DNA of 64,000 nt. Source: a virus. Every line of letters starts with the position of its first letter. Positions within the stretch are counted from its first letter, which is position 1. A program made the position numbers and the translations under genes. Positions 10,076 to 29,958 of this stretch are shown here, in pieces. The notes beneath the pieces are model-generated. The model made no database searches. It saw only the letters and a program-made list of their open reading frames with translations, and had not been told where the DNA came from. The DNA is taken from IMG/VR virus record IMGVR_UViG_3300023079_000003, one strand, 5' to 3'.

Positions 10076-10491
10076 TGCCCATCCACCGCGACCGCCACAC
10101 CCTCCGCCCCGACGCCGACGGCGACCCCGGAGACGTCATGGCCGGGTTCGGCGTGGCCCTGGTCATGGACCTCCACGGCTGCGACCCCGACCTGATTGCC
10201 GACGGCGAGTACATCACCACCTGGGTCAGACAGTTGGTCCAGCGCATCGACATGGTCCCGTACGGAGACCCGATCCTCGCCCACTTCGGCCACGCCAACC
10301 CGACCACCTCCGGGTACACCGTCGTGCAGCTCATCGAGACCTCGTCGATCGTCGCGCACTTCTCCGAAGGCCGGCACTCCGTGCACATCGACGTCTTCTC
10401 CTGCAAGCCGTACGACACGTACGACGCCCTCACCTTCACCGAGGCCACCTTTAAAGCCCAGGCGACCACATACTCAGTCATCCACCGGTAG
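10075..10491 (+). CDS. speD: S-adenosylmethionine decarboxylase-family proenzyme (pyruvoyl-dependent)
   Basis: MDLHGCD...GYTVVQLIETSSIVAHF...HIDVFSCKPYD; cleavage Ser, His and Cys conserved. Confidence 0.85.
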   Translation: MPIHRDRHTLRPDADGDPGDVMAGFGVALVMDLHGCDPDLIADGEYITTWVRQLVQRIDMVPYGDPILAHFGHANPTTSGYTVVQLIETSSIVAHFSEGRHSVHIDVFSCKPYDTYDALTFTEATFKAQATTYSVIHR

Positions 10492-13065: not shown

Positions 13066-13366
13066 CACCGACCTGGCCGACCGGCTGATGCGGAAGCTGT
13101 GGCACCGGCGCACCCAACTCGCCTACGAACTGAACGTGCAGTGCAACTACGCGTTCATCGGCCGGGAGATTGAGATGCTGCTCAGGGTCCACGCCCCCCG
13201 CCCGGCCGACCAGCCCCCGTGGGAGACCGGCAGGCTCCCTCCTCTGATGGGCATCGACCTCGTCCCGTCCGACAGCCTCCGCCACGACGAGTGGCAGCTC
13301 CGCGACCAGTCCGGCACGGTCCGGGCCTTCGGCACCCTCACCGACATCCGCGAGGAAACCTCATGA
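13058..13366 (+). CDS. Hypothetical protein
   Basis: Coupled ORF. Confidence 0.65.
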   Translation: MDSTDLADRLMRKLWHRRTQLAYELNVQCNYAFIGREIEMLLRVHAPRPADQPPWETGRLPPLMGIDLVPSDSLRHDEWQLRDQSGTVRAFGTLTDIREETS

Positions 13367-14325
13367 AATTCTTCAACCGGACACCCGAGCCCGACCCGGA
13401 CGACCAGGTGTCCGTGACCATCACCCCGCCCGACGCCGACGGCAAACGCCGCTTCACCCTCACACCCCCGCAGGAGACCCCCGTGCCCGACCAGCAGACC
13501 CCCGACGACGCCTTCGACGGTGGCAGCGCCCTCACCGAGGATCAGTACGCCGCCCGTAAGGCGTGGCAGATGGACCCAGCCGCCCTCGCGGACGAAACCC
13601 CCACAGCCCAGCAGGCCGCCGTGAACGACCCCACCGTCCAGCGGTTCGTCAACGCCCCCGGCGAGGTCCGCCGGCGCATCCGCGACCTGGAAGCAGCCGA
13701 CCTCGCCCCGTCCGAGCACGAGCACGAGCAAGGCCCGGCCATCACCGGCACCCAGCTCACCATCACCCCAGAGGACATCTGCCCCAACTGCGGGCAGCGG
13801 ATGCCCTCCGACGCCGCCCTCCTGCAGGCCGGTGTCGACCTCCTCACCGGCGCGCAGGTTACCGACCAGCTCACCGTCCGCTTCTACGAGATCGTGTTCG
13901 AGCTGGCCCCCGAAGCCCGCGCCCTCTTCGACGACCCCGACGCCGGGAAGTCCTGGCAAGAGCTGGTCGACGTCAACGCCCCGACCGACTCCTGGGGGCG
14001 CAACCAGAGGGACAAGATCGTCTCCTCGATCGCCCTCCTGGCCAAGCACTACGGCGACACCGAGGAAACCAGCGACGACCCCGACTTCCTCGACCGCGCC
14101 CTCGTCTCCATGGGCCGCGCCCACTCCCGGTTCAACCTCACGGTCGAGCACTACGGCATCGTCGGCACCGCCCTGCTCCGCGCACTGCAGGAGTTCGCCG
14201 GCGACGCCTGGACCCCCGCCATGGAGGCCGCCTGGACCCGCGCCTACAAGTACATGGCCGGGACGATGCTGCGCGGCGAGGCAACCCCGAACCGGGGGCA
14301 GACGGGACGCCGGCGGCGGGTATGA
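13363..14325 (+). CDS. Globin-domain protein (acidic N-terminal region, CxxC, then a 3/3 bacterial haemoglobin domain)
   Basis: RFYEIVFELAPEARALF (B10 Tyr, CD1 Phe), NQRDKI (E7 Gln), MGRAHSRFNLTVEHYGIVGTALL (F8 His), WTPAMEAAWTRAY. Confidence 0.9.
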   Translation: MKFFNRTPEPDPDDQVSVTITPPDADGKRRFTLTPPQETPVPDQQTPDDAFDGGSALTEDQYAARKAWQMDPAALADETPTAQQAAVNDPTVQRFVNAPGEVRRRIRDLEAADLAPSEHEHEQGPAITGTQLTITPEDICPNCGQRMPSDAALLQAGVDLLTGAQVTDQLTVRFYEIVFELAPEARALFDDPDAGKSWQELVDVNAPTDSWGRNQRDKIVSSIALLAKHYGDTEETSDDPDFLDRALVSMGRAHSRFNLTVEHYGIVGTALLRALQEFAGDAWTPAMEAAWTRAYKYMAGTMLRGEATPNRGQTGRRRRV

Positions 14326-16865: not shown

Positions 16866-17158
16866 AGAACCACCTGCCCCGCGAACTCGTCACCGTCGTC
16901 CGCCCGGGCGGACACCCGACCGTCACCCGGGTCCGCCGCACGGCCACCTTCCGCCTGGTCGGGGAGCCCGCCACCCGGGCCTGCCCCCACACGATCACCA
17001 CCTGGGACGAGATCACCGACCCCGTGCAGGGCGAGCACCACCGCGAGCGCACCTACCTCCGCCGCACCCTCACCCCGTGCGAGCGGACCGACGGGCACTA
17101 CCGCGACCTCGAGCACCCGGAGAACGCCGCTCACCGGGCAGGGAGCATCACGTGGTGA
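16862..17158 (+). CDS. Hypothetical protein
   Basis: GGAG RBS; GTGA overlap. Confidence 0.65.
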   Translation: MKNHLPRELVTVVRPGGHPTVTRVRRTATFRLVGEPATRACPHTITTWDEITDPVQGEHHRERTYLRRTLTPCERTDGHYRDLEHPENAAHRAGSITW

Positions 17159-17268
17159 AGGCCGGTTGGATGCGCGCCCTCACCGACCGGATGGTTGGCT
17201 GGTACTGGGCGTGGAAGTGGCGCCGCTGGTCCTCGCTGGGCCACCGCCGCGACGACCCACCGGCTTGA
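17152..17268 (+). CDS. Trp/Arg-rich microprotein
   Basis: GGGAG RBS; coupled to the previous gene. Confidence 0.45.
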   Translation: MVKAGWMRALTDRMVGWYWAWKWRRWSSLGHRRDDPPA

Positions 17269-17293
17269 TCAGCAAGCTAGCTGGCGCTATTGT
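17265..17293 (+). promoter_or_regulatory. Housekeeping-sigma promoter heading the biosynthetic operon
   Basis: TTGATC-N17-TATTGT upstream of the GGGAGG RBS and GTG at 17332. Confidence 0.65.
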
Positions 17294-17331
17294 CGCCCCA
17301 ACAGGAGTGTGTCCACAGCCGGGAGGCAACA

Positions 17332-18210
17332 GTGCCCGAAGACCGCCGCCTCGACTACATGCCCCTCACCGAGGTCGCGCGGGCACACCGCAACCCGAAG
17401 AAGCATGACTCCGTCGGCATCGCCCGCAGCATGGACGAGTTCGGAGTTGTCGAGATCCCCGCCCTGGACGAACGCACCGGGCGCCTCGTCGCCGGCCACG
17501 GCCGACTCGACGTGTGGTTGGCGGCGGCGGCCAAGCAGCAGCAGCCGCCCTCCGGGGTGAAGGTCGGACCGGACGGCGTCTGGCTGGTCCCCGTCCTGCG
17601 CGGCTGGGCATCAAAGGACGACGCGCACGCTGAGGCGTACCTCGTCGGCTCGAACCAGCTCACCATCAACGGCGGGTGGGACGATCCCGGCCTGGCCAAG
17701 CTCCTCGACGACCTGGCCGCAGAGGACAACAGCCTCCTCCGGGTCACCGGCTTCGACGACGACCAGCTCGACAAGCTCCTCTCGTCGACCGACACCCTGG
17801 GCGACCCCGCCGGCGGGTTCCTCAAGGACATGGCCTCCCAGCCGTTCGGCCAGACCGTCGAGCAGCAGCCCCCACCCCAGGGGCCACCGGACTACGACTG
17901 GCCCCCGCCACCGCAGACCTACACCCCCGGCGAGCCCGGCGGCGGCGGCGACGAGGAAGGCCCGGTCGGACCGCAGCTCCCCCCGGAGTTCCCGCCCACC
18001 GCGTACGGCCCCGCCGGCACTGCCGCCCAGTACGCCCCGGTCTCCTGGGTTCTCCACGCCGATGCGCGCACCCGGCTCCGCGCGGTCCTCCGCCACCTGC
18101 AGAAGACCCGCGAACTGGCCACCTCCGCCGAAGCCGTCAACGCCCTGGTCGACGACTACATCACCGCGCACAACATCACCATCGAGCAGGCAGAGGAACA
18201 GCCCGCATGA
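17332..18210 (+). CDS. ParB/Srx N-terminal domain protein
   Basis: NPKKHD..GIARS..EFG...DERTGRLVAGHGRL; N.LT..GGWD...L; TGFDDDQL; Pro/Gln linker. Confidence 0.85.
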   Translation: MPEDRRLDYMPLTEVARAHRNPKKHDSVGIARSMDEFGVVEIPALDERTGRLVAGHGRLDVWLAAAAKQQQPPSGVKVGPDGVWLVPVLRGWASKDDAHAEAYLVGSNQLTINGGWDDPGLAKLLDDLAAEDNSLLRVTGFDDDQLDKLLSSTDTLGDPAGGFLKDMASQPFGQTVEQQPPPQGPPDYDWPPPPQTYTPGEPGGGGDEEGPVGPQLPPEFPPTAYGPAGTAAQYAPVSWVLHADARTRLRAVLRHLQKTRELATSAEAVNALVDDYITAHNITIEQAEEQPA

Positions 18211-18686
18211 CCGGCATCCAGATCGTGAACGTCACCCAAACGGCCAGCACCGGCATCCTTGAGGCGCACCTCGGATGGAAGGACGTCCACGGCGCCCCCG
18301 CCGTCGGAATCCCCATGCAGTCGAACGGGCAGCTCGGCGCCGACCTCCTCCACGTCCGCGCCGGCGAGCAGTTCCCCGTGCACACCCACCCCGGGGATCA
18401 CCTGCTCTACTGCGTAGGCGGCCAGGGCACGATCACCGTCGACCAGGTCGTCTACCAGATCCGCCCCGGCGACCTCTACATGGTCGACGGCGCCGTGCCC
18501 CACGCGGTCGGCGCGATCACCGACCACACCATCCTTGCCATCGGCTCCCCCCACAAGCCGGTCGATTCCCCGGAGCGGATGACCTGGTGCGACTGGGAGG
18601 GCAACCCGGTCGAGAAACCGGTCGGCGTCGCCGGCGGCGCGGTACTCCACGATTACGTGTCCCCCGTCCTCCGCCGCATCAAATGA
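18207..18686 (+). CDS. Cupin domain protein
   Basis: FPVHTHPGDHLLYCVGGQG...PGDLYMVDGAVPHAV. Confidence 0.85.
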   Translation: MTGIQIVNVTQTASTGILEAHLGWKDVHGAPAVGIPMQSNGQLGADLLHVRAGEQFPVHTHPGDHLLYCVGGQGTITVDQVVYQIRPGDLYMVDGAVPHAVGAITDHTILAIGSPHKPVDSPERMTWCDWEGNPVEKPVGVAGGAVLHDYVSPVLRRIK

Positions 18687-19837
18687 GCCTTGACCTCACC
18701 GGCCGCCGCTGGCCTGAGGCACCGCGCTCCTCCGAGCGCCTGGCCGTCGCCGAAGCCCTCCAATCCCAGGTGTGGACCGGCGGGCAGTTCACCGAGCTGG
18801 TCGAGCAGCAGATGACAGAGCTGACCGGCGCCCGACACTGCGTGACCTTCAACTCCTGCACCTCCGCACTCCACGCCGTCCTTGCCTCCGACCAGTACGC
18901 GTCGACGACCGGGCGCATCTACACCACCCCCCTGACGTTCGTCGGCACGGTCACCGGCGCCGGGCACCTCGGCTACGACATCGAGTACCGCGACGTCCAC
19001 CCGGACACCCTGAACCTGAACCTGCCACCGGCTAACCCCCTGCCGGTCTACAACGGCCGGATTCTCGCCGTCGACCTTCACGGGGTGCCCCATAGCATCG
19101 ACCGGGATCAGGTCATCACCGACGCGTGCCAGTCGCTCGGCACCACGATCGGCGGCAAGCACCTCGGCGCGCACGGTACGCACTGCTGGTCGTTCTCCTC
19201 GGCCAAGCTCATCGCCGCCCCCGACGGCGGGGCAGTCACCACGAACAATGCCGCCCTCGCCGCCCTGCTCCGCCGGCAACGCGACTACGGGGTACGGACC
19301 CAGACCGTCCCCGGCCGGTCGAACGGCATGATGATGCACCGCGCCGACGGGCACAACTGGCGGCCGTCCGAGCTGACCATGGCCCTCGTTGCCGCCCGAC
19401 TGGAGATCCTCCAATGGGACCGCGACTCCACGGACGGCAACCTCTCCGCCCGCGCGTACCGGGTCGGCACCCGCCTCCACGAGGCCATCGACCTGGCCGG
19501 ACTGTGGAGGCAGCAGACCCGGCCGAACACCCGGGTTGCCTGGCACAAAATCCGGATCGGCCCCCCGAACTGGCAGGAACACTCCGGTGTCCACGCCGCC
19601 AACGAGCTGGGTCACCGCCTCGAGGCCGCTGGTATCCCCGTCCACCGGTGGGGTGCCATCCCCCTTCACCGGCACCCCGCCTACTTCAAGCCGACCTCGT
19701 TCCCGGTCGCGGAAGCCGCCGCCCGGTCGACGTTCTGCCTCGGCACCGAGGACTGCCCCCCGCTCACCTGGACCCCCGAAGAGGTCGAACAGGTGTGCGA
19801 CACCATCATCAAGATCGGGAAGACGGTCAGCGTATGA
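18683..19837 (+). CDS. DegT/DnrJ/EryC1/StrS-family PLP aminotransferase
   Basis: FNSCTSALH, TPLTFVGT, DACQSLG, WSFSSAKLI (PLP lysine), DGGAVTTN. Confidence 0.9.
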   Translation: MSLDLTGRRWPEAPRSSERLAVAEALQSQVWTGGQFTELVEQQMTELTGARHCVTFNSCTSALHAVLASDQYASTTGRIYTTPLTFVGTVTGAGHLGYDIEYRDVHPDTLNLNLPPANPLPVYNGRILAVDLHGVPHSIDRDQVITDACQSLGTTIGGKHLGAHGTHCWSFSSAKLIAAPDGGAVTTNNAALAALLRRQRDYGVRTQTVPGRSNGMMMHRADGHNWRPSELTMALVAARLEILQWDRDSTDGNLSARAYRVGTRLHEAIDLAGLWRQQTRPNTRVAWHKIRIGPPNWQEHSGVHAANELGHRLEAAGIPVHRWGAIPLHRHPAYFKPTSFPVAEAAARSTFCLGTEDCPPLTWTPEEVEQVCDTIIKIGKTVSV

Positions 19838-20973
19838 ACCCGCAGGTCAAGGTCGGCATCATCGGCGTCGGGAACTGCGCGCGCGCCCTCCTCGAAGGCA
19901 CCGCCTACTACCGGGCGCGCGAGTCCGGCACCCAGTTCACCGGCCGCGAGCGCATTGCCGGGCTCATGCACACCATGGTCGGACCGTACGGTCCCGGCGC
20001 GATCGAGCCCGTAGCCGCCTGGGACGTCGACACCGAGAAGGTCGGGAAAGACCTGTGGACCGCGATCCGCTCCGGGCAGAACCTCGACGTCGGCATCCGC
20101 CTCGACCGAGGTGAGGAGCCGGTCGGCGCGGACGTTGAAGTCCAGCGAGCCCCCACCCTCGACGGCACCGGCGCACGCTACCTCGACAAGATCACCCTCG
20201 CGGAGGACTGGCCGAACATCGACGGCCGCGAGGTCGAGCAGCAGATCCGCGACTCCGGCGTGCAGGTGCTCCTGAACTACCTGCCCGTCGGCTCTCAGAC
20301 CGCCACCGAGTGGTGGGCCGAGCGCGCCCTCAACACCGGCTGCGCGTTCGTGAACAACATCCCGGTATTCATCGCCCGGAACCCGACCTGGCGGCAGCGG
20401 TTCCGCGACGCCGGCCTCGCCCTCGTCGGAGACGACATCAAGTCACAGCTCGGCGCCACCTACCTCCACCGCGCCCTCGTGAAGGCGTTCTCGGACCGGG
20501 GCATCACCCTCGACCGCACCTTCCAGCTCAACGTCGGCGGCAACATGGACTTCTACAACATGCTGGAGCGCAGCCGGTTGGTGACGAAGAAGGAGTCCAA
20601 GACCGGCGCCGTCACCGACGCCTACGCCGGCAAGCTCGCCCCCGACAACGTGCACATCGGCCCCTCCGACTACGTGCCGTGGCTGGGCGACACCAAGATC
20701 GCCATCGTCAAGTGCGAAGGCCGGGGGTTCGGCGGGGCGCCGATCGAGGTCGACATGACGATCAAGGTGCCCGACTCCCCGAACAGCGCCGGGGTGGTCA
20801 TCGACGCGGCCCGGCTCGCCCGGTACGCCACCGACCGCAACGACGTGCACGTTGACCGGTGGGTGTCAGCCTGGCTGTTCAAGGCGCCCCCGGCCGACGT
20901 CGCGCAGGAGTCCGACCTGCTGGCCATGCAGCGCCTCGACGACTGGCTGCACGGCGAGGCCGGACTTCGATAG
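19834..20973 (+). CDS. ino1: Inositol-3-phosphate synthase (myo-inositol-1-phosphate synthase)
   Basis: IIGVGNCA, NYLPVGS, GDDIKSQLGAT, QLNVGGNMDF, SKTGAV, DSPNSAG..ID. Confidence 0.95.
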   Translation: MNPQVKVGIIGVGNCARALLEGTAYYRARESGTQFTGRERIAGLMHTMVGPYGPGAIEPVAAWDVDTEKVGKDLWTAIRSGQNLDVGIRLDRGEEPVGADVEVQRAPTLDGTGARYLDKITLAEDWPNIDGREVEQQIRDSGVQVLLNYLPVGSQTATEWWAERALNTGCAFVNNIPVFIARNPTWRQRFRDAGLALVGDDIKSQLGATYLHRALVKAFSDRGITLDRTFQLNVGGNMDFYNMLERSRLVTKKESKTGAVTDAYAGKLAPDNVHIGPSDYVPWLGDTKIAIVKCEGRGFGGAPIEVDMTIKVPDSPNSAGVVIDAARLARYATDRNDVHVDRWVSAWLFKAPPADVAQESDLLAMQRLDDWLHGEAGLR

Positions 20974-21695
20974 TGCCGATCACCCCGTACCTGATCTCCC
21001 TCCCGCGCAGGCAGGACCGGCGGGACGAGTGGGCCACGGCCTGGGACGGGTACGGATTCAACCCACCCCGGGTGATCGACGGCGTTGACGGCTCAGCCCT
21101 CCCGGCGGACCGGGTCGACTCGCACATGAGGACGGCCCTCGCCGCCGGGCACAAGATCAAGCACCGGCGCCACTTCGCCGGCACCCTGGGCTGCCTCCTC
21201 GCCCACCGCGCTGCCTGGCAGACCTGGCTCATGGACAGATCCCCGGGCGGGTATCTCCTGCTCATGGAGGACGACGCCTCCCCCACCCCCGGGCTCACCC
21301 CCGCCCGGTGGCTGCTCGACCTGCAGCAAGCTGTCCGGCAGCTCCCGCCCGGCTGGCTGATGCTGAACCTCGGGGCCAAGGTCCGCAACCAGCCCCGTGA
21401 GGTGCCCGGCGCCCCGAGCCTGGCCTACTCCGGCCGCGACACCCAATGCCTCCACGCCATCCTCTACACGGTCGATGGGGTCATGGCCATGCTCAAGGCC
21501 ACCGCCGACCAGGAGCAGCCCCTCGACTTCGCGTGGCGTCCCGTCCTCGCCGGCGGCAACTGCTACTCGACCCGCCGGTGGCTGGCCATCCAGCGCTGGT
21601 CGTACTCGGACATCTCCCACTTCACCCGGTCGCCGCACCTCGATCACCGGCAGCGCATCGCCCGGTTCCACCAGCCGGAGGTGATCCACCGGTGA
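20973..21695 (+). CDS. Glycosyltransferase family 25-like
   Basis: YLISLPRRQDRR...IDGVDG...GCLLAHRAAW...LLMEDDA...HAILYT. Confidence 0.8.
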   Translation: MPITPYLISLPRRQDRRDEWATAWDGYGFNPPRVIDGVDGSALPADRVDSHMRTALAAGHKIKHRRHFAGTLGCLLAHRAAWQTWLMDRSPGGYLLLMEDDASPTPGLTPARWLLDLQQAVRQLPPGWLMLNLGAKVRNQPREVPGAPSLAYSGRDTQCLHAILYTVDGVMAMLKATADQEQPLDFAWRPVLAGGNCYSTRRWLAIQRWSYSDISHFTRSPHLDHRQRIARFHQPEVIHR

Positions 21696-22483
21696 CCGCC
21701 GACCTGGACGTCATCAACACCTGGACCAACCCCAACCCGGGGCTGCGCCGGCGCACCTACGAGCAGGTGCCGCGCCGGGGCGGCAGGTGGCGGCCGACCT
21801 GGACGGTCGACGGAGTCACGATCAACCGGCCCGGCTGGGACTACGACCGCAACCAGTTCACCGGCGTCCGGAACAACGGCACCGCCTGGACCGCCGACTT
21901 CACCCCCGGGCTGCTCTACACGATCGCCTCCCAGGTGCGCGGCTGGTGCTGGCCCCGCCAGGGCGGCACCCTGTACGAGCTGGCCCAAGCCTCGACCGGG
22001 CAGGTCGTCGAGATCGGCTCCTGCTTCGGCCTCTCCGCCGTGTGGACCGGCTGGGGCATCCGCACCTCGTCCGACCCCGACCGGCGCCTTCATTGCGTCG
22101 ACACCTGGCACAGCCTCGACGTCAGGGGTGACGGCTCCCCCGCCGGGAAGTCCTCCCAGCCGGAGTTCATCCAAAACATGACCTACACCGGCCTCGCCTA
22201 CCACACCTGCCTCCACCAGATGCTCTCCGAACAGGCCGCTGCGACCTGGGACGAGGGACCTGTCGGCATGATCTACATCGACGGCTGGCACACCTACGCC
22301 ATGGCAAAAGCCGACCACCTGTCCTGGCTCCCCCACCTCACCCCCGGCGCGGTAGTCGCCTTCGACGACTGCTCCCCCGCCTGGCCCGGGGTGCTCCGCT
22401 ACCAGCGCGAGCTGGCCGGGCGCGGAGACCACGAGCTGATCGGCCGGGCCGACTCGATGCTCACCTGGAGGTACCGGCCGTGA
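21692..22483 (+). CDS. Class I SAM-dependent methyltransferase (Methyltransf_24-like)
   Basis: VVEIGSCFGLS, HCVDTW, MIYIDGWHTY, LTPGAVVAFDD. Confidence 0.85.
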   Translation: MTADLDVINTWTNPNPGLRRRTYEQVPRRGGRWRPTWTVDGVTINRPGWDYDRNQFTGVRNNGTAWTADFTPGLLYTIASQVRGWCWPRQGGTLYELAQASTGQVVEIGSCFGLSAVWTGWGIRTSSDPDRRLHCVDTWHSLDVRGDGSPAGKSSQPEFIQNMTYTGLAYHTCLHQMLSEQAAATWDEGPVGMIYIDGWHTYAMAKADHLSWLPHLTPGAVVAFDDCSPAWPGVLRYQRELAGRGDHELIGRADSMLTWRYRP

Positions 22484-23310
22484 GAACCGCCCTGAAGGCC
22501 AAGAGCGCCTACCGCAACGAGGACGTCGCCCGGGTGTTCGCCACCATCCGCGACTTCATCAGCGAGGACGAGGCCAACGCCGCCGTCGACCAGGCAGTCC
22601 GCGAGGTCCACCAGACCGTCGGCCTCCGCAACCTCGACCGGGTCGCCTACGGCTGGTCCGGCGGCAAGGACTCCATCGCCCTGCAGGTCGTCATGGAAGC
22701 CGCCGGCGTACAACGGGCCATCCTCGGCACCATCCCCCACCTCGAGTTCAAGGCGTACCTCGACTGGGTCGAGGCGAACCAGCCGGACGGCCTCTACCAC
22801 CACATGAACATGGCACTCGACGTCGATTGGCTGGCCCGGCCCGGAAACGACCGGTACCTGTTCCCCAAGACCTCCCGGCTCGGCTACTTCTGGACCACCG
22901 CCGGCACCCGCGCCGCGCAGAAGGCATACCAGCGGCAGTACGACCCGCCGTTCCAGATTTACGGGCGCCGCTGGGCCGACGGCAACCAGATCGGACCGGA
23001 CGGGTTCTCCGTCTCCGCCGCCACCGGCATCCGCTCCTACAGCCCGCTGAGGGCCTGGTCCCACGAGACCGTCCTCGGCGTAATCCACTACTTCAACCGG
23101 CCTCTCCCTCCCGTGTACGGGTGGCCTCACGGGTGGACCGCCGGCACCGGCACCTGGTGCGGTCGCCGTGTCGGCACCGACGACGAGGCATGGGCCGAGA
23201 CCTGGACCATCGAGTCCGACCGGGTGCGCGAGGCAGCCGACGCCGGAGTGACCGGCGCCGCCGAGTGGATGCAGAGGAACGGCCATGGCCGGACAGAACA
23301 AAAGACCTGA
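22480..23310 (+). CDS. PP-loop / PAPS reductase-family protein
   Basis: YGWSGGKDS, YGRRWAD, SPLRAWSHETV..YF..PLPPVY. Confidence 0.85.
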   Translation: MRTALKAKSAYRNEDVARVFATIRDFISEDEANAAVDQAVREVHQTVGLRNLDRVAYGWSGGKDSIALQVVMEAAGVQRAILGTIPHLEFKAYLDWVEANQPDGLYHHMNMALDVDWLARPGNDRYLFPKTSRLGYFWTTAGTRAAQKAYQRQYDPPFQIYGRRWADGNQIGPDGFSVSAATGIRSYSPLRAWSHETVLGVIHYFNRPLPPVYGWPHGWTAGTGTWCGRRVGTDDEAWAETWTIESDRVREAADAGVTGAAEWMQRNGHGRTEQKT

Positions 23311-24658
23311 GACCTACACCCGGACCGGCCGGGGCGGCGCCGCGCACGTCCTCCCCCGAGTGCAGCTCGACACCGACGTCATGACCCTGGCCAAGGAGCG
23401 CATCGCCATCGCCGCCGAGATCCACGACAACATCCTCGTGGCGTTCTCCGGCGGCAAGGACTCCACCGTCACCCTGCAGCTCACCCTCGCCGTTCTCCAC
23501 GAGAACCCCGAGCTGGGTGCCAAGCACCTGCCGCTGCGGGTCGTGTTCGGGGACGAGGAGTGCATCCCGAAGGAGACCGAGGAGTACGTCCGCCGGGTGT
23601 CGCAGCGGCCGGACGTCCGCCTTGAGTGGTACTGCCTGCCGTTGAAGATGCGCAACGCCTGCTCCCGCAAGCACCCCGAGTGGTGGACGTGGGCGCCCGA
23701 GTCCGAGGAGCTGTGGGCCAGGCCCCTGCCCCCGGAGGCGATCACCCACCTCGACGGCTTCACGAACTGGCCACCCGAAGCCCGCCTGTCGTGGCCGCAG
23801 ACCAACGAACTCCTCGCACCCCCGCACCTCGGGAACGTGTGCATCCTGATGGGCATCCGCGCGCAGGAGTCCCTGACCCGGCTCCGCGCCGTGTCCATCG
23901 CCGGCAAGCGCGAATACAACTGGCTGGTCAAGCAGGGCGGTGGCAACGAAATCCTCAACGGCTCCTCAGGCGGGAACGTGTGGAAGGCGTACCCGATCTA
24001 CGACTGGCTGACCGAGGACGTGTGGACGGCCCCGAAGCGGTTCGGCTGGGACTACAACCACGCCTACGACCTGCTCGCCATGGCCGGGGTCAACCCCGCG
24101 AAGCAGCGATGCTCGCCGGCGTTCGGGGAGGAGCCGATCGGCGGCCTCCACGTCTTCGCCCAAGCCTTCCCTGAGGTGTGGGAGAAGATGGTCTACCGGG
24201 TGCCCGGTGTCGGCTCCGCCTACCGGTACGCCCTCACCGAGCTGTACGGGCACGGCTCCCGCCCGGAGCGCCCGGACGACATGACCTGGCACGACTTCAT
24301 CCTGCACTTCGTGGCCAAGCACCCGGACGGCATGAGGCAGAAGCTCGCCGCCCGGCTGACCGACATCATCCGCCGGCACTACCGGGTCACGTCGAACCCG
24401 ATGCTGGTCAAGGCCCCCCACCCCGACAGCGGCCTCTCCTGGGACTGGCTCCTCATGGTCGCCATGCGCGGGGACACCAAGCAGAGGAAGCAGCCGACGA
24501 ACCGGATCACCCGGGAGCCCGTCGAGTTGAAACGCATGTGGCACCGGTACGCGAAGGAGCTGGACGACACGATCAAGGCAGGCCAGTTCGATATCCTGTC
24601 CTATCCTCGTCACGCCCCCCGCGACCCCTACGCCCTGATCCCTGAGGAGTTCCGGTGA
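23285..24658 (+). CDS. IbrA/YbdN-like PAPS reductase-family protein (DUF3440-type)
   Basis: VAFSGGKDS, WYCLP..MRNACS..WW.W, MGIRAQES..R, YPIYDW.TEDVW, DYN.AYD. Confidence 0.85.
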   Translation: MAGQNKRPETYTRTGRGGAAHVLPRVQLDTDVMTLAKERIAIAAEIHDNILVAFSGGKDSTVTLQLTLAVLHENPELGAKHLPLRVVFGDEECIPKETEEYVRRVSQRPDVRLEWYCLPLKMRNACSRKHPEWWTWAPESEELWARPLPPEAITHLDGFTNWPPEARLSWPQTNELLAPPHLGNVCILMGIRAQESLTRLRAVSIAGKREYNWLVKQGGGNEILNGSSGGNVWKAYPIYDWLTEDVWTAPKRFGWDYNHAYDLLAMAGVNPAKQRCSPAFGEEPIGGLHVFAQAFPEVWEKMVYRVPGVGSAYRYALTELYGHGSRPERPDDMTWHDFILHFVAKHPDGMRQKLAARLTDIIRRHYRVTSNPMLVKAPHPDSGLSWDWLLMVAMRGDTKQRKQPTNRITREPVELKRMWHRYAKELDDTIKAGQFDILSYPRHAPRDPYALIPEEFR

Positions 24659-24960
24659 CCCTTACCGAAGACCCGTCCGACCCGCGACTCACCCACGGAC
24701 CCGACGACGGACCCGCCGCGCAGGCCCCGGTCTACCTGGTCCTGTCGGAGGAGGAGCGAGCCCAGGGTTTCATCCGCCCGGTCCGGCGAACCTACGTGCA
24801 CACGGTCTGTGGTGCGGTCACGACGATGGCCCCGGCGATCGCAGAGACGTACGCGCGCAACCCCGGCTTCTACGGGGCCACCTACTGCACCGGGTGCAGC
24901 CAGCACCTCCCCGTTGGCGAGTTCACCTGGGACGGCGACGGCAGCGTGGTCGGATCATGA
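24655..24960 (+). CDS. Small Zn-finger protein
   Basis: H.VCG..T.M...AETYARNP.FYGATYCTGC..H. Confidence 0.75.
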   Translation: MTLTEDPSDPRLTHGPDDGPAAQAPVYLVLSEEERAQGFIRPVRRTYVHTVCGAVTTMAPAIAETYARNPGFYGATYCTGCSQHLPVGEFTWDGDGSVVGS

Positions 24961-25574
24961 CCGATACCGATCGCCCCGTATCCACCCCTCACCGGGAAGT
25001 CATGACCGATTTTGGTCAGCTCGACCCGGGCGGGTCGGCCCTCTCCCTGGTCGCCCAGCCCGTCAGCAGCATCCAGTGGGTGCCGGCCTCGGCGCTGTCC
25101 GCGAACGACTGGAACCCCAACAAGCAGGCTCCGCCCGAGTTCAGACTGCTGAAGCAGTCCCTGCTCGAGGACGGCTGGACACAGCCGATCGTGGTCCGCG
25201 CCCACGACGACGGCGCCCGCCTGGAGATCGTCGACGGATTCCACCGGTGGACCCTCGCCTCCAAGGACAAGCAGGTCGGCGCGCTCACCACCGTCGACGG
25301 GCAGGTGCTCGTCCCCGTCGTCACCCTGCACGAGACCTCCGACCAGGAGGCCCGCGCCTCGACGATCCGCCACAACCGGGCGCGCGGCACCCACCTCGTG
25401 CTCCGCATGGCCGATATCGTGGCCGCCCTCGTGAAGGCCGGCATGACGACCGAGCAGGTGCAAAAGCAGCTCGGCATGGACGAGGAAGAGGTCGAGCGGC
25501 TCCTCGACCGGGGCAACATGCTCAACCGTGGATCCCGCACCGACGGCAGCTTCGGCACCGGCTGGACAGTCTGA
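24957..25574 (+). CDS. IbrB/YbdM-like ParB domain protein
   Basis: ANDWNPN..APPE..LL..SLLEDGWTQPIV, IVDGFHRW, ASTIRHNRARGTH. Confidence 0.85.
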   Translation: MTDTDRPVSTPHREVMTDFGQLDPGGSALSLVAQPVSSIQWVPASALSANDWNPNKQAPPEFRLLKQSLLEDGWTQPIVVRAHDDGARLEIVDGFHRWTLASKDKQVGALTTVDGQVLVPVVTLHETSDQEARASTIRHNRARGTHLVLRMADIVAALVKAGMTTEQVQKQLGMDEEEVERLLDRGNMLNRGSRTDGSFGTGWTV

Positions 25575-27019
25575 TGACGTACTCCACCAAGGGCCTCTAC
25601 ATCAACGGCGAGTGGGACCAGACCGGCTACGGCAAGGGGATCTACTCGCCCATTGACGGCCGCCTGATCGGCACCGCCTGGTTTGGGCAGATCACCCACC
25701 TCGCCGCCGCCTCCGCAGCCGCCCGCAACGCCCTCGACGGCGAATGGTCCCGGTGGACCGCAGAGGACCGGGCCGCCGCGCTGCGCCGGCTCGCAGACGG
25801 ATTCCACGACCGGCAGCAGGATCTCGGCGCGATGATCCTCGCGGAGGTCGGATCCCCGGTCGACTTCGCGTACGGGCCGCAGATCGACCACCCGCTCCGC
25901 ATCATCAACTACTACGCGTCCGTGGCCGAGAAGTACCGGTTCTCGGAGTCGCGGGTCAACGGGGGCGGGGACGCGCCGGGCACGATCGTCCGCAGGCTCC
26001 CGGTCGGCGCGGTCGGAATCATCACCCCGTGGAACATGCCCCTCAAAACGATCATGATGAAGATGGCGCCCGCGCTCGCCGCCGGGTGCACGGTCGTGAT
26101 CAAACCGGCCGAGGAAACCCCCTTCAACGCCATGGTGCTGGCCGAGCTGGTCGACGCCGCCGGATTCCCGCCCGGCGTGGTCAACGTCGTCCCGGCCGTA
26201 CGCGAGGACGCCGCCTACCTGCCGACCTCGACCTACCTCGACAAGATCGCCTTCACCGGGTCAACCGCCGTCGGCAAGTGGATCGCCCAGCAGTGCGGCG
26301 CCGGCATCCGCCGCTACTCCCTCGAACTGGGCGGCAAGTCCCCGACCGTGCTCCTCCCCGACGCCGACCTCGACGCCTGGGAGGCGTCCGTCCCCTCAGC
26401 CTCCCTGCTCAACAACGGGCAGATTTGCTCGAACCAGACACGCATCCTGTACCCCCGGAAGCTGCAGACCGAGGTCATCCGCCGGCTCGAACGGGTCCTC
26501 GACCGGCAGCGGGTCGGAGACCCCTCCCTCCCGGGCACCACGATGGGGCCGCTCATCACCACCGCCGCAGTCGACCGCTACCACGACGCCCTCAGGGGCG
26601 CTCAGCTCGCCGGCGGCACCGTACGGTACGCGGAGGACGCGGTTGACCCGCGACGCCCCTCAGGGGGCAACTGGGTCACCCCCGCCCTGGTCTCCGGCGT
26701 CGGCCGCGAAGCCCTCATCGCCCGCAAAGAGGTGTTCGGGCCGGTCCTCGTCGCCATGCCGTACGACAACGAGCCGCACGCGGTCGAGCTGGCCAACGAC
26801 TCGCCGTACGGTCTCCACGCCGGCGTCTGGTCCCACCGGAAGTCCGCCGCCCTGGCCGTGGCCAACCGGCTGCGGGTCGGGCAGATCCAGATCAACGGTG
26901 CGGACATGCCGCTGCACACCCCCCTGGGCGGGTTCAAGGAGTCCGGCTGGGGCCGCGAGCTGGGACCTGAGGGCATGACCGGCTACCTCGAAACCAGTGC
27001 GACGGTGGCCTCATGGTGA
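25574..27019 (+). CDS. NAD(P)+-dependent aldehyde dehydrogenase
   Basis: ITPWNMP, KPAEETP, FTGSTAVG, ELGGKSP, NGQICS, EVFGPV, GGFKESGWGRE. Confidence 0.95.
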   Translation: MTYSTKGLYINGEWDQTGYGKGIYSPIDGRLIGTAWFGQITHLAAASAAARNALDGEWSRWTAEDRAAALRRLADGFHDRQQDLGAMILAEVGSPVDFAYGPQIDHPLRIINYYASVAEKYRFSESRVNGGGDAPGTIVRRLPVGAVGIITPWNMPLKTIMMKMAPALAAGCTVVIKPAEETPFNAMVLAELVDAAGFPPGVVNVVPAVREDAAYLPTSTYLDKIAFTGSTAVGKWIAQQCGAGIRRYSLELGGKSPTVLLPDADLDAWEASVPSASLLNNGQICSNQTRILYPRKLQTEVIRRLERVLDRQRVGDPSLPGTTMGPLITTAAVDRYHDALRGAQLAGGTVRYAEDAVDPRRPSGGNWVTPALVSGVGREALIARKEVFGPVLVAMPYDNEPHAVELANDSPYGLHAGVWSHRKSAALAVANRLRVGQIQINGADMPLHTPLGGFKESGWGRELGPEGMTGYLETSATVASW

Positions 27020-27501
27020 TGCGCAACGACATGGCGTTCCGGGCCGAGGTCGCCAAGCGCCGGGCCGAGGCCATCAAGCTCCGGCTGGCCGGGGCCACCT
27101 ACCAGCAGATCGCAGACTCCGAGCTGTACCCGGAGGGCACCCACAGGTCGCAAGCGTTCGTCGACATCAAACGCGCCCTGCAGGAGCACCAGGCTGAACT
27201 GCACGCCGACGTCGAGCTGCTGCGCACCGAGGACCTGCTCCGGCTCGACCGGCTGAACCTCGCCATGTGGCAGCGCGCGATCGGCGGCGACGTCCGCGCG
27301 GCAACGCTTTGCTTGAAGATCATCGAGCAGCGGAGCAAGCTCACGGGTACCGAGGCGCCCCAGCGCCACGCCTGGGAGAGCGAGTCCGATATTGACCGCG
27401 CCATACGAGACCTTCGAGAGCAGCTCGGCGAACCGGGACGACAAGGTCCGCCTGCTATCGAAACTGGAGGAGTTGCAGAGGCTTCGCCGACTGGCGACTG
27501 A
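27013..27501 (+). CDS. terS: Terminase small subunit (HTH type)
   Basis: RRAEAIKLRLAGATYQQIA...RLDRL..AMW..A..GD..A....IEQRSKL.G; lies directly upstream of TerL. Confidence 0.7.
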   Translation: MVMRNDMAFRAEVAKRRAEAIKLRLAGATYQQIADSELYPEGTHRSQAFVDIKRALQEHQAELHADVELLRTEDLLRLDRLNLAMWQRAIGGDVRAATLCLKIIEQRSKLTGTEAPQRHAWESESDIDRAIRDLREQLGEPGRQGPPAIETGGVAEASPTGD

Positions 27502-29038
27502 ACAGGCCCGCGCACGCTTCCTTGAGGTCAACCCCACCCCCGGGGTGTTCGCCCGGCGGATGCAACGCAACGTCAAGCAGACGCCGGCGCTTGACGCGAT
27601 CGACCGCGAGCTGGTCCGCCTCTCCCGCGTCCCGCTTGACCGTGGGCGGCTCATGGTGTTCGTCCCGCCACAGGAGGGCAAGTCCACCCGGGTCTCCTGC
27701 TGGTACCCGCTGTGGCGGCTCGCCCAGGACCCGACCCTCCGCATCGCCATCGTGTCCTACAACCAGGACAAGGCCCGCCGGTGGGGGCGCTGGCTCCGGG
27801 CCGCGATCCGAGGCTTCCCCGAGCTGGGCCTGACCCTGAAGAACGACAGCCGCGCATCTGACCACTTCGAGCTGACCTCCGGCGGGTCCGTCCTGTGCGT
27901 CGGTGTCGGCGGCGGCATCACCGGCGAACCGGTCGATGAGATGATCATCGACGACCCGGTGCGCGGCCGGGCCGAGGCAGAGTCCCCCCGCTACCGGGAA
28001 GCGGCCTGGGAGTGGTGGGAGTCGAACGGGGCCACCCGGTTGTCCTCCCGGGGCCGGGTGGTCCTCATGCTCACCCGCTGGCACGCGGACGACCTCGCCG
28101 GCAGGCTCATCAAGAACGAGCCCATGGAGTGGCACGTCCTGCGCATCCCCGCCATCCGGCACCCCGAACTGCCGGTCATCCGAGGGCACGACGGCGCCTC
28201 CGTCTACGACCCCAACGGTGAACTGATCTCCGTCCAGAACCGCAGGCCCGGCTACTACAAGGAGCTGAAGGCCAAACGGTCCGGGTACGTGTGGCGGTCG
28301 GTCTACGACCAGGACCCCGTGGCCGCAGAGGGCAACCTGTTCAAGCGCGACGACTTCCGGTTCTGGCAGCCGCTCCCGCGTGACCCGGCCCGGGTCGACG
28401 CCCTCTCCGGTGCGCGCATCCAGCTCCCCGACATCGGCGTCAACATCTACCTCGCGGACTACTGGCGGTTCATCACCGTCGACCTGGCCGCGTCGAAGAA
28501 GACCAGCGCCGACTTCACCGTCTGCTCCGTGTGGATGATCTTCGACGGGCACCTGATCCTCCTCGACCGCGTCCGAGGCCGGATCGAGGAGGCCGCGCAC
28601 TGGGACATGCTGCGCCCCCTCGTCGCTAAGTGGGCCGCCCCTGACGTGTTCGTCGAGCGAGGGTTCATCGGCACCACCCTCGTCATCGACGCCACGAAGC
28701 ACAACATCCGCATCCAGCCGGTCGACCCCGACACGGACAAGGTCACCCGGGCGCTGCCGGCGACCTACCGCACCGCCTCGCACACCTGCTGGTTCCCCGC
28801 CCAGGTCGACTGGCTGGACGAGTGGCTGGACGAACTGGCCGAGTTCCCCCAGGGCGCCCACGATGACCAGGTCGACACGTTCGCGTACGCGGCCCGCATC
28901 GCCTCCGCGCACTGGCTCCCCCCGGAGTCCCCCAAGCGCGAGACCGAGCAGACCGCAACGGCGGCCTCCGACCTGGCGTTCCAAGCCTCGACCGGGCAGT
29001 CCGGCGGGGTCGACTTCTTCAAGAACTGGCCTGTCTAG
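27392..29038 (+). CDS. terL: Terminase large subunit
   Basis: PPQEGKS Walker A, IIDDPVRG Walker B, TRWHADDLAG, VDLA...DFT, FPQGAHDDQVD. Confidence 0.95.
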   Translation: MTAPYETFESSSANRDDKVRLLSKLEELQRLRRLATEQARARFLEVNPTPGVFARRMQRNVKQTPALDAIDRELVRLSRVPLDRGRLMVFVPPQEGKSTRVSCWYPLWRLAQDPTLRIAIVSYNQDKARRWGRWLRAAIRGFPELGLTLKNDSRASDHFELTSGGSVLCVGVGGGITGEPVDEMIIDDPVRGRAEAESPRYREAAWEWWESNGATRLSSRGRVVLMLTRWHADDLAGRLIKNEPMEWHVLRIPAIRHPELPVIRGHDGASVYDPNGELISVQNRRPGYYKELKAKRSGYVWRSVYDQDPVAAEGNLFKRDDFRFWQPLPRDPARVDALSGARIQLPDIGVNIYLADYWRFITVDLAASKKTSADFTVCSVWMIFDGHLILLDRVRGRIEEAAHWDMLRPLVAKWAAPDVFVERGFIGTTLVIDATKHNIRIQPVDPDTDKVTRALPATYRTASHTCWFPAQVDWLDEWLDELAEFPQGAHDDQVDTFAYAARIASAHWLPPESPKRETEQTATAASDLAFQASTGQSGGVDFFKNWPV

Positions 29039-29047
29039 GAGGCACCC

Positions 29048-29212
29048 GTGTCCGCTCTCGCCGCCGTCATCTTCTTCGCCCTGGCCCTGATCCTCGACGT
29101 CCTCGACCAGTCCGGCGACCTGGTGTCGACCTTCACCCTGGCCGGGCTGCTCTGCATCGCCCTGCACCTCACCGGATTCATCACCGCCGGACCGTGGACC
29201 CGCCGGCAGTGA
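29048..29212 (+). CDS. Small 2-TM membrane protein (54 aa, not in the ORF track)
   Basis: VSALAAVIFFALALILDVLDQSGDLVSTFTLAGLLCIALHL...; AGGAGG RBS. Confidence 0.7.
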   Translation: MSALAAVIFFALALILDVLDQSGDLVSTFTLAGLLCIALHLTGFITAGPWTRRQ

Positions 29213-29958
29213 CCTACCCCCGGCCGTACCGGCTCCTCGGGTCGAACAGCGAACTCGCCGGGGAGCGCATCCTGAACTGGTCGCTCCCCGCCTGGGCCGG
29301 GCGGCTCAAGGACGGCCGCACCTACAACACCTGCCCGCAGGCCGGCGTCTGCCACCTCGCCTGCTACGCCCTGTCCGGCACCTACCGGTTCTCCAACGTC
29401 CGAGCCCGGCACGAGGCCAACCTGGCGTACGTCCTCGACGACCTCCCCCGCTGGCACGACCACATGTGCTGGGAGCTGTCCCGCCGCAAGCGCACCTTCA
29501 CCTGGGTTCGCATCCACGACTCCGGCGACTTCTTCTCGGACGACTACACCAACGCCTGGCTGTCGATCATCCGGAACACCCCCGAGATGGCCTTCTACGC
29601 CTACACCAAAGAGGTCGACCGGTTCCGGCGTCTCGTCGAGCCCGACCCGCCCGGGAACTTCCTCTGGGCGTACTCCTGGGGCGGTAAGCAGGATCGTCAG
29701 CTTGATGACCAGCGCGACCGGGTAGCGGACGTCTTCCCCGACATGGCGTCCATGCAGGCCGCCGGCTACTCCGACCAGTCCGAGTCCGACGTCCTCGCCG
29801 TCACCGGCCCGAGGCAGGTGGGCATCCACGTGAACAACATCCCCCACCTGAAGAAGAAGCAGGGGCCGCGATCATTCCGGGCGTGGCAGCGGGAGGCAGA
29901 CGCCAAGCACGATCAGCGCGGCCAGCGGGCCAACGGCACCAGCATCGACCGGAGCTGA
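29209..29958 (+). CDS. GP88-family protein
   Basis: WSLPA...TCPQAGVCHLACYA...WVRIHDSGDFF...FYAYTK. Confidence 0.75.
   Translation: MTYPRPYRLLGSNSELAGERILNWSLPAWAGRLKDGRTYNTCPQAGVCHLACYALSGTYRFSNVRARHEANLAYVLDDLPRWHDHMCWELSRRKRTFTWVRIHDSGDFFSDDYTNAWLSIIRNTPEMAFYAYTKEVDRFRRLVEPDPPGNFLWAYSWGGKQDRQLDDQRDRVADVFPDMASMQAAGYSDQSESDVLAVTGPRQVGIHVNNIPHLKKKQGPRSFRAWQREADAKHDQRGQRANGTSIDRS

Follow-up and report, generated by a model that had tools for sequence, protein, structure and literature searches.

A modular phage operon that sets inositol-phosphate-synthase and aminotransferase genes beside PP-loop and ParB proteins ahead of the terminase: a candidate DNA-modification system

Introduction

Why would a phage carry the enzymes of a small-molecule pathway directly before the genes that package its DNA? 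The question is raised by a block of eleven genes, g1 to g11, in a 64,000-nucleotide stretch of viral DNA (IMG/VR virus record IMGVR_UViG_3300023079_000003; the whole stretch is called the window below). The block encodes two ParB/Srx proteins, two PP-loop ATP pyrophosphatases, a homologue of myo-inositol-1-phosphate synthase (MIPS; Ino1), an aminotransferase of the DegT family, and further enzymes that include a GT25-like glycosyltransferase, a methyltransferase and an aldehyde dehydrogenase (ALDH). A sequence-only reading of the stretch had taken all eleven genes for one system that builds an aminocyclitol or sugar group and attaches it to DNA. The computational analysis reported here finds instead that the block is modular and consists of a four-gene core (g1, g7 and the genes for IbrA, g8, and IbrB, g10), a two-gene supply pair (DegT, g3, and Ino1, g4) and a variable set of tailoring genes.

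Phage DNA hypermodifications govern restriction, CRISPR and other nuclease-based defence, and they are a source of useful enzymes. To our knowledge, all known routes to them begin from 5-hydroxymethyl-pyrimidines, from 7-deazaguanine, or with direct methyl, glycosyl or acyl transfer. In the literature searched we found no cyclitol DNA adduct, no function for phage modules of the IbrAB type and no system with this gene set, the last of which agrees with the sequence-only reading; publications on IbrA/IbrB, on DUF3440, on phosphoadenosine phosphosulfate (PAPS) reductase with ParB, and on inositol with hypermodification included no functional study.

Results

A core and a supply pair recur beside the terminase

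Relatives of the module were recovered through Ino1 and g7, and the operon proteins were compared with the recovered loci (numbered with an L) by tblastn. The order DegT-Ino1-g7-IbrA-IbrB is retained in L005/L015, L006, L007, L008/L010/L016, L009 and L011, and in these actinophage loci a g1-type protein stands at the head while the small and large terminase subunits (TerS and TerL) follow. Two short contigs read, as far as they reach, Ino1-methyltransferase-g7-IbrA (L095) and Ino1-g7 (L025). The module is thus present in eight lineages, the window included, at 36-81% identity, and DegT and Ino1 accompany the core in eight lineages, at 36-67% identity and in constant order. Two cultured strains, Streptomyces sp. 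NRRL B-1347 and Actinomadura sp. K4S16 / NBRC 110471, carry relatives as prophages; the module of the former is the minimal version, and that of the latter is extended by the cupin and a GT25-like gene. In L006 and L009 a second IbrA paralogue (PAPS_reduct + DUF3440; L006:11904-13301 and L009:11929-13323) lies between g7 and IbrA and brings the PP-loop enzymes to three per module, and L011 carries a fusion of an AMP-binding domain with a methyltransferase.

More distant g7 homologues (32-39% identity) were found in L012, L013, L014, L017 and L019, which are Bacteroidota phages or prophages and unassigned metagenomic contigs. In four of these loci (L012, L013, L014 and L019) g7, a g1-type ParB/Srx gene, IbrB and IbrA stand directly before TerS/TerL, and tblastn placed g7, IbrA and IbrB before the terminase in L017. 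The terminases of the distant loci belong to different families, and their g1-type proteins end in a CPxCG ribbon. Neither Ino1 nor DegT was found in any of the five. Directly upstream of g7, three of them encode a sodium:solute symporter (SSF) and a protein of about 200 amino acids (L012:7937-10004, L014:6966-9033 and L019:7813-9935), and one further contig has a glutamine amidotransferase after g7. The protein of about 200 amino acids gives weak outer-membrane beta-barrel matches in L019. A solute importer that is encoded by a phage and tied to a PP-loop/ParB module is unusual.

This distribution bears on the possibility that the metabolic genes are a recent capture from a host, functionless for the phage and beside IbrAB by chance. 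The ALDH, a full-length enzyme of cellular type that related modules lack, would fit such a capture, as would the G+C content and codon use of the block, which equal those of the remaining window. The constant company of DegT and Ino1 with the core at such divergence argues the other way, as do the separate, long-branched clade of the phage Ino1 proteins, the overlaps of 1-26 bp between genes, the stability of the ALDH across strains and the catalytic motifs, all of which are intact where checked, as the sequence-only reading had judged. That reading had also held that a set never co-occurring in other phages would point to captured host DNA, and had proposed a neighbourhood search for ino1, DegT and IbrAB; the set recurs beside the terminase in seven further actinophage or prophage lineages. 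On these comparative data, host capture appears largely refuted for the core and the supply pair, and we regard it as very improbable. The data support the view that the gene set is a real, conserved, phage-borne unit and not captured host DNA.

The PP-loop and ParB proteins of the core

The domain assignments made earlier (ParB, cupin, DegT, Ino1, GT25, methyltransferase, PP-loop, IbrA, IbrB and ALDH) were all recovered, those of g1 and g7 through libraries other than Pfam, in which neither protein has a match. For g1, the matches are the ParB PHROGs phrog_498/620 (1e-21) and the ParB part of PADLOC's MTase_II model (1.2e-13), and the ParB domain of g1 is of the type found fused to type II DNA methyltransferases. 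Homologues of g1 stand at the head of, or within, every module checked for them, the distant loci included.

g7 matches phrog_424, and its AlphaFold2 (AF2) model, with a predicted local distance difference test (pLDDT) score of 95.5, shows a PP-loop fold. Foldseek matches of 3e-6 to 5e-4 link it to CysH (PAPS/APS reductases), FAD synthase, NcsA and GMP synthetase. TtuA, like NcsA a tRNA thiolase, is also among the closest structures, and the structural kin include archaeal fusions of PUA domains with PAPS reductases. In the family alignment the SGGKDS motif is invariant and no cysteine is conserved, which excludes CysH-type reduction and Fe-S thiolation; Fe-S or persulfide chemistry was ruled out for g7 on the same ground. 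What the alignment would leave is either adenylation of a substrate that an N- or O-nucleophile then attacks, or transfer of an adenylyl group to a phosphate. The g7 family is mostly viral; in cultured phages g7-type proteins are nearly missing, a search of 50,697 phage records having yielded one match, which was uncultured. Neither g7 nor IbrA had a match when its sequence was searched against PDB chains.

The IbrA protein, g8, matches PF01507 (1.3e-11) and PF11922 (DUF3440; 1.9e-8), both above their cutoffs, and phrog_2302 at 8.2e-80. Its SGGKDS motif is invariant across the family, as are many Arg, Trp and Asp residues. The only cysteines found family-wide are C117 and one at or next to position 126, and there is no conserved cluster of Fe-S type. 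Against the DndC model TIGR03183 it scores 26.6 bits, where the cutoff is 290.4; its PADLOC match to DndC is limited to the PP-loop, and its similarity to DndC and BrxP is confined to the same element. The Foldseek matches of its AF2 model, which was built from 10 sequences (FAD synthase, LarE, TilS and CysD, at E of about 1e-2), reflect the generic PP-loop fold only.

The IbrB protein, g10, matches PF02195 at 27.5 bits (cutoff 26.3) and phrog_2159 at 4e-60, and its family alignment has the invariant motifs NPN, DGFHR and NRARGTH. g8 and g10 thus form a pair of the IbrA/IbrB type, that is, a protein with a PP-loop and DUF3440 beside a ParB/Srx partner with a DGxHR motif. The C-terminus of IbrB ends in FxxGWTV, which is conserved within the actinophage group and varies in more distant members; it was considered as a Gly-Gly carrier tail and rejected on that pattern. 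It looks like a docking peptide. In modelled complexes the IbrA-IbrB interface reaches an ipSAE of 0.78, against 0.00 for the best of three controls, a mark attained by 51 of 78 solved complexes and by 2 of 108 mismatched pairs; at least 77% of contacts agree between runs, and the partner pLDDT is at least 68. In the modelled contact, residues 178-205 of the IbrB tail rest against an invariant surface patch of IbrA, Y239-D240-W241...W247, close to the PP-loop lysine. The modelling supports binding of IbrB by IbrA.

The supply pair

g4 matches Ino1 of M. tuberculosis (1GR0) over its full length at 1.5e-96 and phrog_33138 at 1.7e-84, and the MIPS blocks GDDIKSQ, NVGGNMDF, KKxSKT and DSPNSAG are all conserved. 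Its score against the equivalog model of the actinobacterial enzyme (TIGR03450) is 360.9 bits, below the cutoff of 638, and its second-best structure is 6K96, a synthase of a five-membered cyclitol phosphate. When 77 cellular Ino1 sequences are included in the tree, the eight proteins from actinophages group as a single, fast-evolving clade (support 100/100), whose stem measures 2.56 substitutions per site against a median terminal branch of 0.11. Given the sub-equivalog score, the separate long-stemmed clade and the match to 6K96, the product of g4 could differ from that of the cellular enzyme. In a control set of 39 loci that have cellular-type Ino1 and span at least 8 kb, none had DegT, g7 or IbrA nearby, whereas g7 was found at every phage-type locus. 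Contig depth in metagenomes rises 20- to 60-fold at window positions 20509-20570; this is a mapping artefact, because the segment is the conserved Ino1 core (the NVGGNMDF region), which is common to the cellular Ino1 of other organisms.

The aminotransferase g3 retains its catalytic lysine (Lys175, in SFSSAK) and is distant from every characterised subfamily; PDB entry 7B0D, a glutamine-scyllo-inositol transaminase, is among its matches. DegT adjoins Ino1 in all actinophage loci that are long enough to show both.

Phage Ino1 beside DNA-hypermodification genes

Three lineages of proteobacterial phages have Ino1 homologues (35-41% and 31% identity, same PHROG) that are embedded in clusters for DNA hypermodification, of a different kind in each case. 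The Ino1 gene of Caulobacter phage Cr30 (KF301602.1; L002:4904-9182) directly follows three genes annotated as hypothetical, which encode a dATP/dGTP diphosphohydrolase domain (5e-34), an amino acid:DNA transferase (AADT; PF18724, 1.3e-52) and a TAGT-like glycosyltransferase, the last a weak match under the Pfam cutoff. Judged from these three genes, Cr30 probably carries an undescribed thymidine hypermodification. In Ralstonia phage RP13 (LC554890.1; L024:1924-11544), Ino1 lies between HMUDK_hel (3e-47) and HMUD2 (1.4e-13), and these flanking genes for 5-hydroxymethyldeoxyuridine (5-hmdU) DNA kinase are likewise annotated as hypothetical. An anti-CBASS protein resembling Acb1 (8.7e-15) is encoded in the same stretch of RP13. 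In Stenotrophomonas phage Marzo and related phages, Ino1 has GTP cyclohydrolase (FolE) on one side and QueC/TGT/QueC on the other.

These contexts help to weigh a second explanation, namely that the module makes a free small molecule. Candidate products are a metabolite of the aminocyclitol type, an inositol-derived thiol or lipid precursor, and a PP-loop-ligated conjugate; the product would reprogramme the host or act on competitors, with IbrA/IbrB as a regulator or as a small-molecule kinase or ligase. MIPS together with a DegT-family transaminase is the classical entry to the inosamines of actinomycete aminocyclitol antibiotics, which the 7B0D match recalls. The methyltransferase, the glycosyltransferase, the ALDH and the AMP-binding/methyltransferase fusion of L011 resemble tailoring enzymes of natural products; PP-loop enzymes of the same fold (FAD synthase, GMP synthetase) adenylate small molecules; and the SSF symporter of the gut-phage versions handles a small solute. 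However, the core stays directly before the terminase across unrelated terminase types, and it has two ParB/Srx proteins, one of them of the type fused to DNA methyltransferases. Moreover, Ino1 elsewhere in phages belongs to clusters for DNA hypermodification and not for metabolites, and genes for export, resistance, a dehydrogenase or a phosphatase are not present. We therefore consider a free small molecule unlikely.

Tailoring genes and a polymorphic GT25 cassette

The remaining genes of the block are unevenly distributed. The cupin (g2) is shared only with L005/L015 and L011, and the methyltransferase (g6), whose motif I is intact, only with L011 and L095. g9 has no homologue in related loci and is stable in near-identical strains; the zinc finger proposed for it is only an HxxC...CxxC pattern, and Pfam, PHROG and PADLOC scans gave no family match. 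The ALDH, with catalytic E251 and C285 and the GSTAVG motif present, occurs in no other module lineage, yet it is stable across the population of the window phage, with or without GT25. It also scores well against aminobutyraldehyde dehydrogenase models. According to the sequence-only reading, an acid made by the ALDH would be adenylated by a PP-loop enzyme and joined to an amine as an amide. Because the ALDH is unique to the window lineage while both PP-loop enzymes are universal, this is not the core mechanism.

The GT25-like gene is found in two other lineages and is missing from L006, L008/L010 and L009. In the window it forms a 713-bp cassette (20979-21693) that is cut exactly at gene boundaries and flanked, at the g5 and g6 start codons, by short microhomology, CCGATGACC / CCGGTGACC; when the cassette is lost, the start of g5 is joined to the body of g6. 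Some strains of 99.2% identity have the cassette and others lack it, and both forms occur in one leaf-litter sample. GT25 is dispensable, since it is polymorphic among strains of about 99% identity.

The same observations bear on a third explanation, in which another macromolecule is modified, be it virion proteins (as in glycosylated actinobacteriophages), the cell envelope (as a block to superinfection) or tRNA. PP-loop enzymes classically modify tRNA bases. The adjacency of the GT25-like glycosyltransferase and the methyltransferase to structural genes agrees with this explanation, late co-expression with virion genes would suit virion decoration, and the PUA (RNA-binding) fusions and thiolases NcsA and TtuA among the structural kin of g7 would suit tRNA. 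However, virion glycosylation would call for a constant, required glycosyltransferase. GT25 is neither, being absent from these minimal modules and variable among strains, so that glycosyl transfer by GT25 is not the core function. g7 lacks the cysteines of the tRNA thiolases, and the linkage of Ino1 to DNA-modification enzymes in other phages indicates DNA. ParB/Srx partners are also not known to us from the glycosylation of proteins or of the envelope. A target other than DNA among the macromolecules seems to us improbable, to much the same degree as a free metabolite.

Structure of the locus

The G+C content of the window is about 70%, and its gene layout reads as that of an actinobacterial siphophage or prophage: small, dense early genes are followed by the eleven-gene block, TerS/TerL, a Mu-type portal, a ClpP-type protease and a capsid protein. 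Plotting third-position G+C by reading frame resolves eleven clean coding segments on the + strand at 17.2-27.0 kb. Start-codon analysis places g1-g11 on that strand across 17290-27019 with a start/stop overlap of 1-26 bp at every junction, which confirms the tightly overlapped genes running into the packaging genes that had been described (Table 1). It likewise confirms the overlap of ALDH and TerS, the ALDH stop (27017-27019) lying inside the TerS start cluster ATGGTGATG (27013-27021). The lengths given by an independent gene caller on near-identical contigs agree from g5 to TerS (240, 263, 276, 457, 101, 205, 481 and 162 amino acids). No terminator-like site was found by a + strand scan from g1 through the end of TerL.

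The single promoter proposed earlier is less secure. Its string, TTGATC-N17-TATTGT, is present, but it agrees with the consensus at only 8 of 12 positions and falls under the threshold of a promoter scanner, which found 0 sites (0.7 expected by chance). GTG 17332, with a GGGAGG Shine-Dalgarno sequence, is the better start of g1, because the -10 hexamer overlaps TTG 17290. A possible small open reading frame of about 38 codons (17152-17268), in frame with high third-position G+C, fills most of the gap before g1. It ends (TGA 17266-17268) within the proposed -35 hexamer, and transcription may therefore run on from the upstream genes.

Table 1. Features of the eleven-gene block and its downstream neighbours in the window
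Feature	Position	Strand	Role and supporting match
Promoter-like string TTGATC-N17-TATTGT	17265..17293	+	sequence present; 8/12 consensus positions; weak
g1, ParB/Srx-A	17332..18210 (alternative start TTG 17290)	+	core; ParB-type N-domain, Pro-rich linker, C-terminal helical domain
g2, cupin (possible keto-isomerase or epimerase)	18207..18686	+	accessory; Cupin_2 5.6e-13
g3, DegT/DnrJ/EryC1/StrS aminotransferase, pyridoxal-phosphate-dependent	18683..19837	+	supply pair; PF01041 2.7e-41
g4, phage-clade myo-inositol-1-phosphate-synthase homologue (Ino1)	19834..20973	+	supply pair; Inos-1-P_synth PF01658 1.2e-31
g5, GT25-like glycosyltransferase	20973..21695	+	optional cassette; PF01755 1.7e-5, just above cutoff
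g6, class I S-adenosylmethionine-dependent methyltransferase (Methyltransf_24)	21692..22483	+	accessory; PF13578 2.4e-21
g7, cysteine-free PP-loop ATP pyrophosphatase, PAPS-reductase/FAD-synthase-like fold	22480..23310	+	core
g8, IbrA-type PP-loop ATPase with DUF3440 domain	23285..24658	+	core; PF01507 and PF11922
g9, 101-amino-acid protein, HxxC...CxxC (possible Zn ribbon)	24655..24960	+	specific to window lineage
g10, IbrB-type ParB/Srx protein, helix-turn-helix-like segment, putative C-terminal docking tail	24957..25574	+	core; PF02195
g11, ALDH	25574..27019	+	lineage-specific tailoring or moron gene; PF00171 4.7e-123
TerS	27013..27501	+	weak HTH_23; homologues just before TerL in L005, L007, L009, L011
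TerL	27560..29038 (alternative start TTG 27473)	+	Terminase_6N 9e-7; gene caller start 27560
GP88/DUF5131-like protein	29194..29958	+	PF17338 1.5e-53; membership of module uncertain

A gene for a GP88 protein (PF17338, related to DUF5131) follows TerL in the window and stands immediately upstream of the g1-type gene in other actinophages (L006:6916-7695, L008:7086-7844, together with L010, and L009:7092-7868); DUF5131 genes also occur a few kb upstream of the module in L012 and L014.

Upstream, PHROG and Pfam scans of the early genes revealed no precursor-base enzymes. The early region encodes a MazG-like pyrophosphohydrolase (a weak Pfam match) and a DUF1643 protein (8e-35), at 1521-1841 and 2281-2898. 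MazG-type enzymes at times accompany non-canonical nucleotide metabolism in phages. A homologue of pyruvoyl-type S-adenosylmethionine decarboxylase (PF02675, 3.8e-18) is encoded at 10075-10491, about 7 kb upstream of the operon, and a link of this protein and the ALDH to polyamine-type amines is conceivable. A further gene, at 13363-14325, encodes a 320-amino-acid protein that carries a globin domain (PF00042, 4e-10) at its C-terminus, an unusual feature for a phage.

The proteins recur in identical form on contigs that reach about 68 kb, and the sequence was present in at least a dozen leaf-litter metagenomes. A megablast of the operon against the 50,697 phage records gave no match. The nearest virus record is the window itself from 31229 onward (100% identity) and is uninformative on the operon in relatives.

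Discussion

A modification of the phage's own DNA

Of the explanations considered, the one we favour, with about even confidence, is that the module acts between replication and packaging and chemically modifies the DNA of the phage itself. It would be expressed late and co-transcribed with the terminase genes. Ino1 would cyclise glucose-6-phosphate to a cyclitol phosphate, and DegT would transaminate the keto form of the cyclitol to an amine of the inosamine type. In the window phage this amine could be methylated by g6, optionally glycosylated by g5 and possibly processed by the ALDH. The PP-loop enzymes would spend ATP to adenylate a DNA oxygen, either a base carbonyl, as TilS and GMP synthetase do, or a backbone phosphate, as has been proposed for DndC. 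Alternatively, one of them might turn the cyclitol phosphate into an ADP-activated donor, as FAD synthase does with FMN. The ParB/Srx partners would open access to double-stranded DNA, as has been shown for 5mYOX-ParB and reported for DpdA-DpdB, and displacement of AMP by the amine would yield a cyclitol adduct that protects the DNA from host nucleases.

Comparative evidence gives this inference, first drawn by the sequence-only reading, independent support, the strongest of it being the placement of phage Ino1 in thymidine and 7-deazaguanine clusters, to which the precedent of ParB activators is added. ParB homologues have been shown experimentally to activate phage post-replicative thymine dioxygenases (5mYOX) on double-stranded DNA (PMC13229309), and further DNA-modification systems with ParB proteins are DndB/DndC and DpdA/DpdB. 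The part of it that names DNA as the target remains an inference, to which we give roughly equal chances either way; the public runs that contain the phage are all short-read metagenomes from leaf litter or soil, kept as contigs.

Several further observations weigh against modification of DNA. We know of no PP-loop enzyme that aminates DNA. Some enzymes with ParB/Srx domains have proteins or small molecules as substrates, examples being sulfiredoxin and a serine kinase, and the IbrAB pair of E. coli was named after an effect on gene expression. The match of IbrA to DndC is restricted to the PP-loop, far below the model's cutoff, the IbrA model is poor (pLDDT 62), and neither a base-flipping nor an obvious DNA-binding enzyme domain was identified. 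In large T4-like phages, the link of Ino1 to hypermodification genes could be partly positional, as the regions concerned are rich in DNA-metabolism genes. Finally, domain scans of the operon and its flanks found no inositol monophosphatase and no inositol (Gfo/Idh/MocA) dehydrogenase. Of the aminocyclitol (inosamine) pathway, only MIPS and DegT are present here, and the route from the Ino1 product to the DegT substrate is therefore incomplete in the phage. In the absence of these two enzymes, the keto-cyclitol would come from host enzymes, such as a dehydrogenase, or from a variant Ino1 or cupin activity that lets go an inosose intermediate.

Comparison with known systems

The module is best described as having its closest functional analogues among ParB-assisted DNA-modification systems, though it tests as a member of none. 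Like the Dnd/Ssp phosphorothioation systems (DndB with DndC; SspD), it pairs a ParB/Srx protein (DGQHR in DndB, DGFHR in IbrB) with a PP-loop ATP pyrophosphatase of the PAPS-reductase family, in those systems on DNA, and it is proposed to spend ATP on activating an oxygen for substitution. In contrast to Dnd, the cysteine desulfurase DndA/IscS, DndD and DndE were not found among the operon proteins or flanking genes, and g8 lies outside the DndC equivalog and has no family-wide set of Fe-S cysteines. The module also has two PP-loop and two ParB proteins, with amine-making instead of sulfur-mobilising enzymes, and it is phage-borne beside the terminase, whereas Dnd is a host defence island. The likeness to 5mYOX is that a ParB homologue with N- and C-terminal domains, devoid of a classical DNA-binding domain, activates a post-replicative DNA-modifying enzyme (PMC13229309).

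In thymidine hypermodification (5-HMUDK, AADT), too, an oxygen is made a leaving group and displaced by an amine, and Ino1 occurs in such clusters in Cr30 and RP13. However, the operon has no dioxygenase, 5-hmdU kinase or AADT, and PF18723, PF18747 and PF18724 were not found in the scanned window proteins; the module would adenylate through a PP-loop instead of phosphorylating, and would add a cyclitol amine and not an amino acid or polyamine. The Dpd/7-deazaguanine systems resemble it in combining PP-loop ATPases (QueC), a ParB-like ATPase (DpdB) and a dedicated supply of a small molecule, and those of Stenotrophomonas phages hold Ino1 inside. They differ in that TGT/DpdA, FolE, QueD, QueE and QueC were not found in the operon or the upstream region, and in that the PP-loop proteins of the module belong to the PAPS-reductase family (PF01507) and not to the QueC family (PF06508).

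g8 and g10 belong to the same families as IbrA/IbrB of an E. coli prophage and the pairs of cultured phages (Streptococcus, Flavobacterium, Mycobacterium and others), and IbrA homologues occur in 223 phage records. The pairs of cultured phages differ in having no second PP-loop protein of the g7 type, no Ino1 and no DegT; no paper establishing a biochemical function for IbrAB pairs was found in the literature searched. With the actinomycete aminocyclitol pathways (streptomycin, spectinomycin, hygromycin A) the module shares MIPS, an aminotransferase of the DegT/StrS family, and tailoring by methyltransferase and glycosyltransferase, whereas the phage lacks their phosphatase and dehydrogenase, the setting is a phage late operon, and the partners are PP-loop/ParB proteins and not genes for antibiotic assembly, export or resistance. 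The tRNA lysidine and agmatidine synthetases and GMP synthetase offer the model for the proposed chemistry, adenylation of a base carbonyl followed by displacement of AMP by an amine, and TilS (1NI5) and GMP synthetase are fold matches. That similarity is at the level of fold only (12-18% identity), and there is no precedent for such chemistry on double-stranded DNA with the help of a ParB protein, as the module would perform it.

A possible platform and its meaning

In the gut phages a symporter takes the place of the supply genes, which suggests one platform with interchangeable sources of the adduct. From this we put forward, tentatively and as a single joint reading, that the four-gene core may be a widespread, unrecognised phage platform that installs amine adducts on DNA by adenylation and displacement. 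Its chemistry would correspond, on DNA, to that of the lysidine/agmatidine synthetases or GMP synthetase, or would parallel phosphorothioation with a phosphoramidate as the product. The supply would be exchangeable, by biosynthesis through Ino1 and DegT in actinophages and by SSF import in gut phages, and the window phage would have the first cyclitol (inosamine)-bearing DNA. Ino1, on the same tentative reading, would feed at least three hypermodification routes, namely PP-loop/ParB, 5-hmdU kinase/AADT and 7-deazaguanine.

If the target is indeed DNA, the module would add to the known routes both a new activation chemistry, PP-loop adenylation aided by ParB/Srx partners, and a new class of adduct, the cyclitol amines. 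It would also assign a function to IbrA/IbrB, which are annotated in hundreds of phage genomes, and explain why inositol-phosphate-synthase genes lie next to DNA-modification enzymes in phages of Stenotrophomonas, Caulobacter and Ralstonia. Even with a target other than DNA, the module would be a conserved pathway of phages in which aminocyclitol synthesis is tied to PP-loop ligases, with no described parallel.

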